In this document: one piece after another, positions 1 to 8,433 of the stretch
Numbering within the stretch: the first letter of the stretch is position 1
How the letters are laid out: each line of letters starts with the position of its first letter
UHGV virus genome: UHGV-1948712
Reading direction: 5' to 3' (one strand)
From: a virus
Length of the DNA stretch: 8,433 bases
Notes under the pieces: model-generated
Seen by the model: the letters and a program-made list of their open reading frames with translations, nothing else
The model's database searches: none
What the model was told of the DNA's origin: nothing
Program-made: the position numbers and the translations under genes

Positions 1-11
1 TTATGCGCACC
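1..11 (-). other. dif-like XerC-binding arm, site truncated by the window edge
   Basis: Window bases 1..11 are TTATGCGCACC, the exact reverse complement of GGTGCGCATAA, which I recall as the XerC arm of E. coli dif (GGTGCGCATAA-TGTATA-TTATGTTAAAT). The central region and XerD arm would lie beyond position 1. Confidence 0.5.
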
Positions 12-2426: not shown

Positions 2427-3146
2427 ATAATAATTAAATCCTCTGTGAACAGAAAATTGACCGTGCGTGATAAATGGTGGCAAAAGCGAAAATGCGCCAT
2501 GAGGATAATTATCTGTGAACGCTTGTTTGGTATTGTAAGCAGAATAAAGAGATTTTCCTGTATATATCCATTTATCAACAGTGATTGAATTAACATTATC
2601 ACCATATTTGACAATGCCAAAGTGTACCTTTGGTAAAGAAAATCTCGCCCCTGAAACCAAATTCATAATGGAGCCAACAAAAGGAATGTTTAATTTATCT
2701 GAACGGCGACAATAAACAACATGCTCAGCAAGCGCCAGACGAGCTTGCTTATCCATTATCGAAATATCCTGAATCAAAAATATAATATCCCAGCCTAATT
2801 TTCTGGCATGTAAAAACCAGTCAATAACAGGTTGTCTGTCTTTATCACCCCATGAGCGGGAATTAAACCAAGTACCACATTCATCAAGTACAAGGAGGCC
2901 ATTACGGGATTCATCGTAAGATGTATTCCCAATACCAATAGCAAGTAAATCATTTAATGAAGGCTTGTCAGGAATGCGAATAACGCGCGTTTTTTTCGCA
3001 TAACGCCCAACCATAGGCATATTATGCAATTTAAGATCAAGATTAGTGGCAACAGGACAACCCTTAGCAAGTCTTTCCTGTATTCTGGAAACACTAACAA
3101 GTGTCTTGCCTGAGCCTAATTTGCCTGTTACTACATAAACCGCCAT
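2052..3146 (-). CDS. I: gene I protein, Zot-like inner-membrane assembly ATPase
   Basis: 364 aa. N-terminus MAVYVVTGKLGSGKTLVS carries a Walker A motif and is near-identical to M13 pI as recalled; DWFLHARKLGWDIIFL and LALAEHVVYCRR are also conserved. The ATG directly follows the gene VI stop (TAAATG). Confidence 0.92.
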   Translation of the reverse strand: MAVYVVTGKLGSGKTLVSVSRIQERLAKGCPVATNLDLKLHNMPMVGRYAKKTRVIRIPDKPSLNDLLAIGIGNTSYDESRNGLLVLDECGTWFNSRSWGDKDRQPVIDWFLHARKLGWDIIFLIQDISIMDKQARLALAEHVVYCRRSDKLNIPFVGSIMNLVSGARFSLPKVHFGIVKYGDNVNSITVDKWIYTGKSLYSAYNTKQAFTDNYPHGAFSLLPPFITHGQFSVHRGFNYYMRLTKIYFRKSNRLILMLSFLALGLAFGFWLQSGKNVDEISAIKSAYAEQARAVTPDSSSDLPRLSINSFSQLGFDVSVTFVDAKGMKYQYFDLIKDGYSVDIKDACRVVIRKGRYLQTVTCQE

Positions 3147-3488
3147 TTAAATCACCCTGTTTGCATAATCAAGAAATTTTTGTTTTAAATCGAAAACAAA
3201 AACACTGATACGAGTAACCATAATAACGTTAACACACGCCTGAAAATGGTCAGGCAATACAGACGCCATTAAATGGGAGAAATCAGCAGGTAAACCGTTA
3301 TACATGACCTCAGCAAGGTACTGCATTAAAAGCGTAACAGTTGTTGTAATTAATGCGACCAATGCAAAGGCGATTAATCCTGTTCTGGTAGCAAGTCGAG
3401 CTAAAAAAACCGCCACATAGCCAATAAACAAAGGAACAAGACCAATAAGAAAACGCAACAATGCAGGAATACCTAATAATAAAGGCAT
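3147..3488 (-). CDS. VI: gene VI protein, minor coat protein
   Basis: 113 aa hydrophobic protein similar to M13 pVI ([13 protein letters not shown].., C-terminal FVFDLKQK). ATG at 3488..3486 overlaps the gene III TGA stop (TGATG coupling). The ORF track start at 3491 is a GTG one codon upstream. Confidence 0.85.
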   Translation of the reverse strand: MPLLLGIPALLRFLIGLVPLFIGYVAVFLARLATRTGLIAFALVALITTTVTLLMQYLAEVMYNGLPADFSHLMASVLPDHFQACVNVIMVTRISVFVFDLKQKFLDYANRVI

Positions 3489-5883: not shown

Positions 5884-6663
5884 TTCTATTCTCCCTACAT
5901 ATTCAGAGAATAATTGACGTGGTGTTTTCATATTCCAGTTAGCGCCAAGCGTTAAATTTAAATCAATAAGCTCAGTTGTTCTTAATGTTAATTCAATACG
6001 TAATTTATCTTTCGTCCAGTCCAGTAACCCGGCTCGTACAAACTCTTCGGCTATCTGGTGCCCTTTTTTACCAGAAACGTGTTCATCATATTTTGAATAA
6101 AATTTCAGACTCCATCGACGGGAGTTTTTACCTAAATAAACTGTACCGCCTTTCCCACATGCGCGACCATGGCGTGTTTTAGCTTTAAATTCGGCGGCAT
6201 AAAGCCATGATCTGACATTTTCCAGCGTAGATAATGAATACATGTAATTAATGTCAATACGTGAAATTTTATACTGACCTGCCATAACGGCTTTATAAGA
6301 CGCTAAATCATGAGGAATATTCAATAAGGATAAAATCCTGGCATAGACCGTCAACATGAGCCCTTGTATATCATCCGACCCAACAACAGAATGCCCCTGC
6401 AGAAACTTGGAAGGATTACCATCAATGTACAAATGTGTCGCTTTACCTTCGCCATTAGATCCTATCGATCGTACTTTCATCGTTGCTTCATGCGAACCGC
6501 GAACAGTCAGTCGCTTAACGGTTTCCCACTCAATTGCACCGTCAGCATCAACGCTGACAACACTCCCCGCCGGAAGCGGTTTGTGTGTGCAAGGGAAAAT
6601 CCCGGTAAGCCAATCGATCACGAATAAATCCTCAAAATTACAAAAATGATGACTTACTAACAC
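5569..6663 (-). CDS. II: gene II protein, rolling-circle replication initiator/nickase
   Basis: 364 aa with similarity to M13 pII (KFLQGHSVVG vs KVLQGHNVFG; NNVVPLIR vs NNVVPLVR). The start is a GTG at 6663..6661 with a stop 3 codons upstream and no obvious SD, so the exact start is uncertain. Confidence 0.85.
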   Translation of the reverse strand: MLVSHHFCNFEDLFVIDWLTGIFPCTHKPLPAGSVVSVDADGAIEWETVKRLTVRGSHEATMKVRSIGSNGEGKATHLYIDGNPSKFLQGHSVVGSDDIQGLMLTVYARILSLLNIPHDLASYKAVMAGQYKISRIDINYMYSLSTLENVRSWLYAAEFKAKTRHGRACGKGGTVYLGKNSRRWSLKFYSKYDEHVSGKKGHQIAEEFVRAGLLDWTKDKLRIELTLRTTELIDLNLTLGANWNMKTPRQLFSEYVGRIEMNQNAILSDEKITKLPRKIQSTYLLWKQGANMKEMLPHNTFYRHRRELLSFGIDINFYCDSPDSNNVVPLIRTLEAKPAEIPLWIYEKGFIFDYNRISHASSWH

Positions 6664-6779
6664 ATGAGTTCAGTAGTTCATTAGTGTTTTAACATTACAC
6701 CAGTGAGCTAGTGAGTTCAAGAGGATTGGATGATATGAGTTCATGAGCATGTATACTCACTTCAAATATTGCATTGAAC
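6664..6779. repeat. cluster of GAGTTCA/GTTCA repeats in the divergent II / accessory-cassette intergenic region
   Basis: GAGTTCA at 6666..6672, 6713..6719 and 6738..6744; GTTCA at 6676..6680; inverted TGAAC at 6775..6779; an ACTCAC inverted copy at 6755..6760. Five pentamer copies in about 115 bp is far more than expected by chance. Confidence 0.5.
6692..6720 (-). promoter_or_regulatory. candidate sigma70 promoter for gene II
   Basis: On the minus strand: -35 TTGAAC (6720..6715), 17-nt spacer, -10 TAATGT (6697..6692), about 30 nt upstream of the gene II start. Sequence-only prediction. Confidence 0.4.
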
Positions 6780-6790
6780 GAGCGTAAAAA

Positions 6791-6973
6791 ATGGCAAAGC
6801 GCACGACTTATAACGTGACGGAAGAAAGAAAAATGAAACTAGAACGACTGGCTATAAATGCCAGTGTAAAACTAGGAAAAACAATTACATGGACAGAGAT
6901 TTTAGGTTATCTGATTGATAACTACTCTAAAGATGCAGCAGAAGATCTCATGTCTGCCAAACAAAAGGATTAA
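6791..6973 (+). CDS. ribbon-helix-helix-like small DNA-binding regulator, 60 aa
   Basis: MAKRTTYNVTEERKMKLERLAINASVKLGKTITWTEILGYLIDNY fits the RHH pattern (basic beta-strand, helix A, G-containing turn, helix B) of CopG/Arc/MetJ-type proteins. Transcribed divergently from gene II. No SD before the ATG, so it may be leaderless or start elsewhere. Confidence 0.5.
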   Translation: MAKRTTYNVTEERKMKLERLAINASVKLGKTITWTEILGYLIDNYSKDAAEDLMSAKQKD

Positions 6974-7026
6974 GTACCACGAATGGTACAAACGTGCAGT
7001 ATTACCTACACTGCACGTTCTTTATT
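6974..7026 (+). terminator. tandem hairpins, the second terminator-like
   Basis: Hairpin 1: GTACCA (6974..6979) / TGGTAC (6984..6989), 4-nt loop. Hairpin 2: AACGTGCAGT (6991..7000) / ACTGCACGTT (7010..7019), 9-nt loop, followed by CTTTATT. Sits just after the RHH gene stop. Confidence 0.5.
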
Positions 7027-7061
7027 GTGCGGATTTTGAACAGCAACAAAGGATCAAAAGG

Positions 7062-7484
7062 ATGAGTAGAAATAACGAAACAAGCGGCGTTGAACTGGTT
7101 GTTGTAGGCGTATTTGCTTTCTGTCTGGCAGTTGTTGCCTGGCTAATGAAAACTTTCGATGTTGAATGGCAAACAGCACTGGAAACTGCGCCTGGCCTGA
7201 TAGTCTGGCTGCTTGTTGTCGGTGCGGGGATCTTTTTCGGGATCAAAATGGAAACTGGCCTTATTCGCTGGGGTGCTCCACTGGCGATCGCCCTTCTGAT
7301 TCCGGTATTCAAGCCAATTCTTAAGGAAGCTGCCGGAGTTCGTGAAACGGGTGGGCTGGTTTTCGATGATATGGTTTCGTGGTATGGAACTGGCTGGGGA
7401 ATGTCTCTGATGTTCTTCGGGATTCTTATTGTCGGATACGGTCTGCTTTATTGGTGGCACAGAAGGAATTCATATTATTGGTGA
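7062..7484 (+). CDS. small integral membrane protein (3-4 predicted TM helices), 140 aa
   Basis: ATG at 7062 with AAGGA SD at 7049..7053 (8-nt spacer). Hydrophobic stretches LVVVGVFAFCLAVVAWL, GLIVWLLVVGAGIFFGI, APLAIALLIPVF and SLMFFGILIVGYGLLYWW. The ORF track extension back to 6915 would cross the hairpins and overlap the RHH gene, so the internal start is preferred. Confidence 0.5.
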   Translation: MSRNNETSGVELVVVGVFAFCLAVVAWLMKTFDVEWQTALETAPGLIVWLLVVGAGIFFGIKMETGLIRWGAPLAIALLIPVFKPILKEAAGVRETGGLVFDDMVSWYGTGWGMSLMFFGILIVGYGLLYWWHRRNSYYW

Positions 7485-7495
7485 ATGTCAATCAC

Positions 7496-7519
7496 TTGAA
7501 TTTACAGGTTTTTTATAAT
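7496..7519 (+). promoter_or_regulatory. candidate promoter: perfect -10 TATAAT with poorly spaced -35
   Basis: TATAAT at 7514..7519. The nearest TTGAAT (7496..7501) gives only a 12-nt spacer, so the -35 is doubtful. About 40 nt upstream of the 7557 gene. Confidence 0.25.
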
Positions 7520-7556
7520 TTCAGCCCGCGCTAGTTTGATATTGTGAAAGGTGAAG

Positions 7557-8132
7557 ATGAGTATGCAACCGAATGAAGAAATGGACCTCAGGAAATTTTA
7601 CGCAGAGGGAACAGCTGACTACTTAAAAACTAAAATCAAAAAAAGCGAACGACTTTTAAAAATAAACCAATATCTATCATTTGCCCTCCCTGTCCTAGTT
7701 GGAGGATACGCATCGGTTGATCACAGCTCCAAATATTTTGATTTTTTAGTTTGGGGCACAGGGATATTATCAGTGATAGTCTTGCTTTCTAATTTATACA
7801 CGCTGGTCATGAAGACTGATGAAAATTTATCTCGATATCTGGAATCATACTCTTTCAATAAACTCCTAACTGATTTGTATGGCGAACTGTCGAGCATGTT
7901 TAAATCAAAGACAGGCAACCAGCAACCCGCTAACCATTTGTTTTCAGTGATAAAATCAAAAGATGACTTCAATGCCAAGGAAGATGAAAAATATGTTAGC
8001 AATAATGATAAGAAACGGATTATGTTCGACATTCTGGTAAAGAAAAATAAAGAATGCGTACGTTGCAATAAAATACCGACTAAATTTAACAAGCGGAAAG
8101 GTTGCACAAATTGTGGCAATCTCGTGAAATAA
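7557..8132 (+). CDS. 2-TM membrane protein with C-terminal zinc ribbon, 191 aa
   Basis: ATG at 7557 after AAAGGTGA (7546..7553); the ORF track start is a GTG at 7551. Two adjacent hydrophobic helices (YLSFALPVLVGGYASV; FLVWGTGILSVIVLLSNLYTLV), a K/E/N-rich soluble region, then CVRCNK...CTNCGN. Very AT-rich coding sequence. Confidence 0.6.
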   Translation: MSMQPNEEMDLRKFYAEGTADYLKTKIKKSERLLKINQYLSFALPVLVGGYASVDHSSKYFDFLVWGTGILSVIVLLSNLYTLVMKTDENLSRYLESYSFNKLLTDLYGELSSMFKSKTGNQQPANHLFSVIKSKDDFNAKEDEKYVSNNDKKRIMFDILVKKNKECVRCNKIPTKFNKRKGCTNCGNLVK

Positions 8133-8143
8133 AGGAGAAACAA

Positions 8144-8335
8144 ATGAGTTATAAAGTAGATCAAGTCAAAGCTCTCTGGCTTCAATTGACTGATGCGGAG
8201 AAAAAAGAATTTACAACATATCTTTTTAATGGTGAAAAAAAATCCTTACGTGAAGGATTCGAAAGTTTTAGTGTGAATAAAAGCACTACAATGCAATTTG
8301 GTGATGCAAACGTCTGCCCTGCTTGCGGAAAATAA
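8144..8335 (+). CDS. small protein with C-terminal CPAC motif, 63 aa
   Basis: ATG at 8144 preceded by a strong SD AAAGGAG (8131..8137, 6-nt spacer), 11 nt after the stop of the upstream gene, suggesting translational coupling. Ends ...GDANVCPACGK. The ORF track start at 8102 overlaps the upstream gene and lacks an SD. Confidence 0.55.
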   Translation: MSYKVDQVKALWLQLTDAEKKEFTTYLFNGEKKSLREGFESFSVNKSTTMQFGDANVCPACGK

Positions 8336-8376
8336 AATCTAAAAGATTTTGGTTCGCACAATGACGTTATGCTAAA

Positions 8377-8413
8377 GAGGCCGCTGCGGGATTCGATTTT
8401 CGCAGCGGCCTTT
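8377..8413 (+). terminator. rho-independent terminator closing the plus-strand cassette
   Basis: 11-bp GC-rich stem AGGCCGCTGCG (8377..8387) / CGCAGCGGCCT (8400..8410), 12-nt loop, followed by TTTT. Confidence 0.75.
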
Positions 8414-8433
8414 TCAACATAACGAGTCCTACA

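Follow-up and report, generated by a model that had tools for sequence, protein, structure and literature searches.

The viral genome UHGV-1948712, an 8,433-nucleotide (nt) stretch of DNA referred to here in its full length as the window, carries a small gene on its plus strand at 8144..8335, stop codon included. This gene directly follows another on the same strand, at 7557..8132, which encodes a 191-residue membrane protein of the family TIGR04402/PF27874 (“mobilome CxxCx(11)CxxC protein”). The family had been named, with its function unassigned, and annotations of hundreds of plasmids and prophages list it as a solitary “mobilome” protein. From the sequences compared here, the small gene appears to be a conserved and previously unnamed partner of TIGR04402 proteins, the two together forming a two-gene module carried by phages and plasmids. 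What, then, might so small a companion do for a membrane protein? Three points are new: TIGR04402 is recognised as one member of a conserved gene pair, the family of its small partners is defined, and the large protein is described as SLATT-like. The type of phage, its attachment site (attP) and the fact that one end segment varies were known beforehand.

The two genes and their products

The small gene opens with an ATG at 8144 and stops at 8333-8335, and its product runs from MSYKVDQ to FGDANVCPACGK (complete product, MSYKVDQVKALWLQLTDAEKKEFTTYLFNGEKKSLREGFESFSVNKSTTMQFGDANVCPACGK). The 63-residue open reading frame (ORF) ending in CPACGK that had been reported in a first-pass annotation is present in the sequence, and so are the strong Shine-Dalgarno sequence and the 11-nt gap described with it. 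The Shine-Dalgarno AAGGAG lies at 8132-8137 (plus strand), overlapping the TAA of the upstream gene (8130-8132) and leaving a 6-nt spacer before the ATG, and the gap between stop and start codons covers 8133-8143. An identical 11-nt gap and Shine-Dalgarno sequence precede the small gene in Pectobacterium (locus L007), and in a more distant relative (L010) the large and small genes share an ATGA stop/start overlap. As judged from these signals, the small gene is predicted to be translationally coupled to the 191-residue gene.

Homologues of the small gene, 62-63 residues long and 81-98% identical, are found in at least eight enterobacterial genera (Klebsiella, Enterobacter, Serratia, Pectobacterium, Yersinia, Cronobacter, Edwardsiella and Salmonella). 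By the Nei-Gojobori method, pairwise dN/dS lies in the range 0.09-0.20 for the small gene, against 0.01-0.09 for its large neighbour. That the small ORF should be a chance frame or a decaying, unexpressed remnant is hardly credible: it is short and AT-rich, several RefSeq plasmids lack an annotation of it and some assemblies have it frameshifted, but the low dN/dS, the residues that are invariant across three phyla, and the conserved Shine-Dalgarno sequence and coupling all stand against such a reading, which the conservation data exclude. With its translation, homologues, purifying selection, AlphaFold2 (AF2) model and family alignment in hand, the small ORF can be taken with great confidence as a genuine gene rather than a chance frame. 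A program-made list of ORFs also contains a 77-residue version initiated at TTG (8102-8335), which was rejected as the gene because homologues begin with MSYKVDQ and because the Edwardsiella reading frame opens exactly at the ATG equivalent to 8144; the ATG at 8144 is the conserved start. Read-through or frameshifting beyond the stop at 8333 to give a full zinc ribbon was also rejected, there being no second CxxC in any frame and all homologues stopping there. Between the window and Pectobacterium (7563-8332 vs. L007 5420-6189), dS is 0.30 in the small gene and 1.06 in the large one, and the low value of the small gene relative to the large hints at recombination inside the module.

Within the small gene, codons E31-K32-K33 contain an A8 homopolymer (8235..8242, plus strand), also A8 in L001. 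Close relatives have A7 instead (two Logan assemblies and one Enterobacter hormaechei assembly; L030, L031 and L032, ~2592-2598), giving a 43-residue product beside an intact large gene. The same change from A8 to A7 occurs in a Salmonella assembly with many other frameshifts. A7 may be a homopolymer sequencing error, the result of slipped-strand (phase) variation, or a transcriptional slippage site.

The upstream protein is confidently placed in TIGR04402 by its sequence, scoring 143.1 bits against a cutoff of 70 over profile positions 2-179 of 180; this agrees with the RefSeq annotation in strain C10, and PF27874 is precomputed on all its close homologues, most of which begin at the ATG at 7563. 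Like other members, it matches the family over its full length, is about 190 residues long, ends in CxxC...CxxCG, and sits in a mobile-element context. An exhaustive search with the TIGR04402 profile yields 261 representative clusters (50% identity), nearly all of 185-205 residues; the window's protein belongs to a divergent branch, with only two of these clusters close to it. The family is mentioned in no paper of the literature searched. It is defined as a single protein of unassigned function, and the downstream small gene is in no model. The first-pass annotation described the upstream protein as having two transmembrane (TM) segments and a zinc ribbon, and this description stands: one strong hydrophobic helix (centre 68-76, KD>1.6) and one moderate (~37-56) are followed by a C-terminal, basic zinc ribbon, CVRC-x12-CTNCG. 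The four ribbon cysteines (C167, C170, C183 and C186) are invariant, with 12 residues between the CxxC pairs in the window's subfamily, unlike the 11 of the family name and of most other members. The AF2 model (predicted local distance difference test, pLDDT, 83.8) has long helices at 5-52, 59-84, 87-117, 119-143 and 149-162, then the ribbon, which is unstructured because no metal was modelled.

The N-terminal part of this protein is SLATT-like, as seen in the window's own matches, in matches across the family and in structural searches. The window's protein matches SLATT_1 at E = 0.06 (13.3 bits, cutoff 41) and DUF4231 at E = 0.088. Among 24 diverse TIGR04402 members, 14 match SLATT_1 (best E 7.9e-5, all below cutoff), and others match SLATT_4, 5 or 6. 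In a Foldseek search against viral models, SLATT proteins make up seven of the top 12 matches, with probabilities of 0.82-1.0, the highest-ranked of them reaching 0.97-1.0, and E-values of 0.03-0.3. Since all these matches fall below the curated thresholds, the protein is called SLATT-like and not a SLATT member.

The small protein is quite different in nature. Soluble, with a maximum KD19 <0, and near-neutral, it contains two cysteines and no histidine. Its AF2 model (pLDDT 63.7) has helices at 3-13, 17-28 and 33-40, the first two more confident, then a low-confidence linker (40-47), a beta-hairpin (50-57), and the CPACGK knuckle. No family in Pfam, NCBIfam, PHROGs or PADLOC accounts for it, no fold is matched by its model in Foldseek, and no recognisable antitoxin or DNA-binding domain (RHH, HTH, AbrB, Phd/YefM or similar) is found in it with the libraries searched. 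An HMG box was considered and rejected: a narrow profile matched the HMG boxes of SMARCE1, TFAM and PMS1 at E = 0.2-6, over the motif W..LS..EK..Y, but a phylum-wide profile gave helices of troponin C and UAP1 instead, owing to a generic L-[ST]-x-E-E-x-x-E-F helix cap, and the first HMG helix is missing.

The C-terminal half-knuckle, CxxCG[K/R], corresponds to codons C58-P-A-C61-G62-K63 (8315..8332, plus strand) and is defined by its invariance in an alignment of 16 family members, in which C58 and C61 are the only invariant potential metal ligands. A zinc ribbon has two knuckles and four Cys/His ligands in one chain, of which the small protein has half, and no zinc-ribbon model run against the 16 members matched more than one of them. 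A single rubredoxin-type knuckle cannot make a four-ligand site, and any metal site of the small protein must therefore be intermolecular. As far as its sequence goes, the small protein fits the earlier proposal of a half zinc ribbon or of a site completed in trans. Where might the two missing ligands come from? The four cysteines of the large protein being invariant, the partner has no empty metal site to offer. In a profile-profile comparison of the small protein with its partner, the sole similarity is between its knuckle and the partner's last knuckle, and it is weak (10 columns, probability 21%). Two routes are possibilities: a 2+2 Cys site between small subunits, or a knuckle exchange with the partner ribbon. 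The former would be attractive for lineages carrying two small paralogues. The Rad50 zinc hook, in which one CxxC from each of two chains shares one zinc ion, is a precedent for an intermolecular 2+2 Cys site. The small protein's single CxxC (CP.CG-like) likewise cannot form a four-ligand site alone, and lineages with two tandem small paralogues would fit a heterodimer; unlike the zinc hook, its motif is C-terminal and follows a beta-hairpin instead of lying at a coiled-coil apex, and there is no homology between the two. The small protein is also well suited to a study of how one half of a metal site comes to be completed by another chain.

Pairing across phages, plasmids and phyla

In every lineage examined, an ORF of 59-72 residues ending in CxxCG[K/R] lies directly downstream of the TIGR04402 gene on the same strand. 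These lineages are two inovirus subfamilies, IncF plasmids, Plesiomonas, Flavobacterium, a Bacteroidota metagenome-assembled genome (MAG), two Rhodococcus and two Streptomyces (loci inspected: the window, L007, L014/15, L010, L011-13, L019/29, L020-L024, L027 and L028), and the pairing spans Pseudomonadota, Bacteroidota and Actinomycetota. The co-occurrence rests on about 12 independent lineages together with plasmid counts, and not on a census of the 261 representative clusters. Spacing between the two genes varies from a 20-nt overlap to a 28-nt gap. A tblastn search with a typical family member located TIGR04402 on plasmids of E. coli and Salmonella (IncF), Plesiomonas, Flavobacterium, Rhodococcus and Streptomyces, and a genome scan found the Bacteroidota MAG locus; at these loci, the small ORF has 62-72 residues and overlaps the end of the large gene or lies at most 28 nt from it. 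In four plasmid records, the small partner is unannotated (RefSeq/PLSDB plasmids: L019 3095-3307; L022 ~3096-3278; L027 2082-2288; L028 ~2078-2257), and in the L027 record the large gene is unannotated too. Searches for related loci in genome, viral and metagenome collections gave 0-1 loci each. A degenerate DNA pattern for the ribbon found none in viral contigs and only two unrelated eukaryote-like matches in metagenomes, and the cassette DNA and one family member gave no match in a phage collection.

The 16 small proteins, drawn from about 10 lineages, align as one family in which E22, C58, C61 and G62 are invariant, L15 is nearly so, and the terminal residue is K or R. Their signature consists of an N-terminal L-[ST]-x-x-[EQ]-[KR]-x-E and of CxxCG[K/R] at, or within two residues of, the C-terminus; no Pfam or NCBIfam model matched any of these 16 proteins. 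In a second inovirus lineage, a TIGR04402 homologue (51% identical) has two small paralogues in tandem behind it, 63 and 59 residues long, both carrying W..L[ST][DE].E[KR].E and M.FG....C..CG[KR], an arrangement that suggests a hetero-oligomeric small subunit. These paralogues lie at L010 4597-4978 and L011 4001-4384, the first of them overlapping the large gene by ATGA.

Plasmid counts point the same way. On IncF-type plasmids, the large gene is full-length in ~205 enterobacterial records and cut to residues 1-111 in ~140, and the small gene is present in 202-206 records, which leaves none for the ~140 shortened large genes; from this, the two genes seem to share the same fate, whether retained or lost. 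Intact copies of the pair number ~200 in PLSDB, on clinical IncF plasmids. One internal deletion has inactivated both genes together in a Yersinia remnant; in Yersinia enterocolitica P0014 (L004 5948-6204), a 67-residue chimeric ORF consists of a central part of the large gene (MFKSK...NAKED) joined to the small gene's C-terminal half. As far as these sequences tell, the partnership is an obligate-looking one, conserved across three phyla. Stoichiometric co-expression of the small protein with its upstream neighbour, as proposed earlier, and functional dependence upon it are thus strongly supported, by the pairing across three phyla and by the joint retention or loss of the IncF genes, and the conservation of the pairing is better evidence of co-expression than the Shine-Dalgarno sequence and gap from which it had been deduced. 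A constant small partner and a SLATT-like fold turn an orphan annotation into a defined two-gene system, of less than 0.9 kb and clonable.

The surroundings of the plasmid-borne pairs are varied. On IncF plasmid L029 (4694-16579), a paralogous pair lies between sopAB and a leading-region block comprising antirestriction, DUF1380, DUF3560, methyltransferase and ssb genes; it is co-oriented with this block, and ISEc32 is inserted just downstream. On a Plesiomonas plasmid (L020 3606-5564), the TIGR04402 pair is next to a HigB toxin-antitoxin system and a TIR-domain/caspase-family gene pair, a neighbourhood that is defence-island-like.

Possible roles of the pair

SLATT proteins are predicted pore-forming conflict effectors and are needed for DRT10 defence, in which a sensor gene is translationally coupled directly downstream (PMC7159879). 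We favour, tentatively and at somewhat less than even chances, reading the pair as a SLATT-type conflict module of minimal size, with a small cytoplasmic subunit that regulates the membrane effector or senses on its behalf. The large subunit would be an inner-membrane protein made of a SLATT-like two-helix hairpin, a cytoplasmic helical stalk and the basic C-terminal zinc ribbon, and would act as an effector which permeabilises or otherwise perturbs the membrane. Its cognate regulator or sensor, the small protein, would dock on the cytoplasmic part of the effector through its C-terminal beta-hairpin and half-knuckle, the latter taking two further ligands in trans either from a second small subunit or by a swap with a knuckle of the partner ribbon. 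Together, the two proteins might act in abortive infection, exclusion or host killing. Physical contact between them, the sharing of metal, the effector activity and the biological role are all what we infer for the pair. The resemblance to the SLATT-RT of DRT10/UG17 would lie in a putative two-helix membrane hairpin flanked by cytoplasmic helices, for which SLATT proteins are the best structural matches, and in the translational coupling of the gene just downstream. The differences are that there is no nucleotide cyclase, SLOG, reverse transcriptase (RT) or non-coding RNA here, that the companion has only 63 residues, and that the large protein has a zinc ribbon fused at its C-terminus and does not reach the curated SLATT thresholds. 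In favour of a role in conflict, the corresponding slot of the phage is occupied in other strains by cargo of a defence-like kind (PD-(D/E)XK, STM4504, a pair with the zinc-binding ECs_2282).

Several observations weigh against this reading. The similarity to SLATT is below every curated threshold, and the Foldseek E-values are only 0.03-0.3. A signalling enzyme of the SMODS, SLOG or RT type, the usual companion of SLATT, is adjacent at none of the loci examined. All four cassette proteins searched against PADLOC-DB v2 at E <= 1 match 0 families, and neither protein of the pair matches any toxin-antitoxin family. The partner owns a complete 4-Cys site, and metal sharing with the small protein is not required; the C-terminal half of the small-protein model is of low confidence. 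Finally, an A7-shortened small gene beside an intact large gene, found in at least two lineages, would if real argue against an essential inhibitory or antitoxin role. A bolder version is possible, if unlikely: the pair would constitute a new, phylum-spanning two-gene membrane immunity or addiction system of mobile elements, in which a 60-70-residue subunit gates a SLATT-like pore through an intermolecular zinc site, made either by a knuckle swap with the ribbon of the effector or as a 2+2 Cys hook of two small subunits. If true, it would be the smallest SLATT system known, with no nucleotide second messenger needed. The earlier suggestion that the small protein serves as an antitoxin, immunity or adaptor component is a plausible guess.

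Could the pair instead be an addiction module of the toxin-antitoxin kind? In that case the membrane protein would depolarise the cell and a labile small antitoxin would bind it, thereby stabilising the carrier phage, plasmid or dif remnant. This is rather improbable, even though much about the pair would suit it: a tight two-gene operon on mobile elements, lying beside partition genes on IncF plasmids; a pair under purifying selection which persists after the loss of all phage genes; IncF counts suggesting that the full-length large gene is not retained without the small one; a small protein whose structured N-terminus and low-confidence C-terminal tail resemble many antitoxins; and a single deletion that took parts of both genes in the Yersinia remnant. 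Toxin-first type II pairs (higBA, hicAB, mqsRA) are similarly compact operons on mobile elements with a small second protein, and MqsA, a zinc-binding antitoxin, is a loose precedent. The pair nonetheless shows no match in sequence or fold to any toxin-antitoxin family. Its putative toxin is a 2-TM membrane protein where theirs are cytoplasmic enzymes, no DNA-binding fold is recognisable in the small protein, and having the large gene first is unusual for type II systems. Searches of antitoxin families against the 16 small-family members produced isolated, noise-level VapB matches only, and neither protein has a toxin or antitoxin match above noise. A7-shortened small genes beside intact large genes, if these are not sequencing errors, also argue against addiction. 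More doubtful still is an establishment or anti-defence factor for elements that enter as single-stranded DNA (ssDNA), acting early to counter host defences or to exclude competitors without killing the host. Leading regions are enriched in anti-defence genes on the strand that the IncF pair shares (PMC11541004), and the pair lies there between sopAB and the antirestriction/DUF1380/methyltransferase/ssb block, oriented as the leading-region genes are; in the phage, it abuts the ssDNA attP hairpin. Against this, plasmids of Streptomyces and Rhodococcus and small plasmids of Flavobacterium also carry the family, in no such context, effectors rather than inhibitors typically have a SLATT-like membrane hairpin, and the IncF pair is located at the far end of the leading region, beside an insertion sequence (IS) element.

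The remaining explanation, that the small protein is a stand-alone nucleic-acid-binding regulator whose link to the membrane protein is transcriptional only, either as an autoregulator of the cargo operon or as an RstC-like anti-repressor, has very little probability. In its favour are the small size and helical nature of the protein, its place at the end of a CTX-type phage nearest to attP, which in RS1 is the place of the anti-repressor gene rstC, and the weak match of the narrow profile to HMG-box helices. That signal vanished with the phylum-wide profile, leaving a generic helix-cap motif, Foldseek found nothing, and the pairing with TIGR04402 holds on plasmids without phage regulators, which points to a partnership at the protein level and not to phage regulation. 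Should the SLATT-type module, or an addiction function, turn out to be correct, a defence or addiction role would bear on the persistence of plasmids and prophages in Enterobacterales, since the pair is common on clinical IncF plasmids and in the cargo slot of dif-integrating filamentous phages.

The phage and its cargo slot

The minus strand of the window is a complete Ff/IKe-like filamentous-phage core, with genes for the secretin pIV, a Zot-like pI, DUF5455, the attachment protein, the major coat protein, G7P-2, the ssDNA-binding protein and the pII replication protein. As a prophage, this phage adjoins hipBA in complete E. coli genomes; in strain C10 there are two copies in tandem, directly preceded on the left by a perfect dif. 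The folded attP begins with dif-like site 1, its left arm (GGTTCGCACAA TGACG TTATGCTAAAG; 8351..8377, plus strand), recognised by comparison with dif and with the junctions. The hairpin tip follows at 8379..8410, a GC-rich stem (GGCCGCTGCG / CGCAGCGGCC) with a 12-nt loop and then TTTT, seen both in the sequence and in its ssDNA fold; this stem-loop and TTTT are likely also the transcription stop of the cargo operon. On the minus strand, the inverted dif-like site 2 has its XerD-type arm and central region at 8412..8433 (reverse complement TGTAGGACTCG TTATGTTGAAA) and continues into 1..11, where its XerC arm (reverse complement GGTGCGCATAA), placed by the tandem junction in strain C10, is identical to that of E. 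coli dif. It follows that the window is an essentially complete genome of the phage in circular permutation, with the cut falling inside attP. Folded as ssDNA, the attP region (8349-8433 plus 1-11) forms a long bulged hairpin of -30 kcal/mol (z = -7.8), with compensatory changes of the stem in Edwardsiella. Scanned against Rfam, 6600-8433 yielded nothing beyond noise on the attP hairpin.

The inverted dif-like sites folding to a hairpin, the prophage at dif, the intact dif on one side and the tandem copies are the hallmarks of CTX-type integrative mobile elements that exploit Xer (IMEXs), and the window is a CUS-1/Ypfφ-like, dif-integrating filamentous phage with Xer-dependent integration of the CTXφ type. 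CUS-1 and Ypfφ have been assigned to this type of integration and carry differing, unexplained ORF pairs at one end (PMC4246890, PMC4266046). The window shares their gene order, hairpin sites, dif integration beside hipBA and tandem copies; it differs in carrying a third kind of cargo, the TIGR04402 pair, which is also present on plasmids in other phyla.

This cargo occupies a variable slot at 7483..8348 (plus strand), whose flanks (to 7482 and from 8349) are common to prophages in 636 of 5426 complete E. coli genomes, while the interior is replaced: that of the window occurs in one of the 5426 and is absent from plasmids at the DNA level. The TIGR04402 pair is thus mobile cargo in an attP-adjacent slot. 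Elsewhere the same slot holds ECs_2282, a zinc-binding protein, with a 159-residue protein; STM4504/CBY_0614; PD-(D/E)XK with DUF6953; or a pair of 264 and 88 residues (alternative slot coordinates: L002 3814-4568; L003 3868-4797; L018 4092-5163). Several of these alternative cargos also consist of a large gene followed by a small one.

In Pectobacterium (L007 5119-6298, 1.14 kb) and Edwardsiella (L014 4595-6290, ~1.7 kb), the pair is found at the chromosomal dif without phage structural genes, and the module is therefore kept independently of phage production. The 11-nt gap is retained in both elements, as is the hairpin; an intact dif lies to their left and a hybrid site to their right. Either they derive from inoviral prophages by deletion or they are IMEXs of a satellite-like kind. 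The Edwardsiella element also retains a homologue of the 60-residue regulator described below. A ~75-bp element, which runs from the left dif-like site through the hairpin into the first part of the right arm, is present on many conjugative plasmids, at 478 plasmid places. It ends after ...CAACATA and directly follows cargo such as a Shedu nuclease or an STM4504 fragment (L016 3501-3576; L017 3501-3591). These elements resemble remnants of an exchange of cargo, associated with Xer sites, between phages and plasmids.

Upstream of the slot and outside the module are two conserved phage genes on the plus strand, encoding a 60-residue protein (phrog_2503, 6791-6973) and a 140-residue membrane protein (phrog_4174, ~7062-7484); the sole promoter-like site upstream is at 6730-6757. 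In otherwise near-identical phages, phrog_2503, the first gene of the plus-strand operon, is replaced by a 148-residue HTH_3 (RstR-like) regulator (L030 873-1319, L018 3056-3502), which suggests exchangeable immunity modules.

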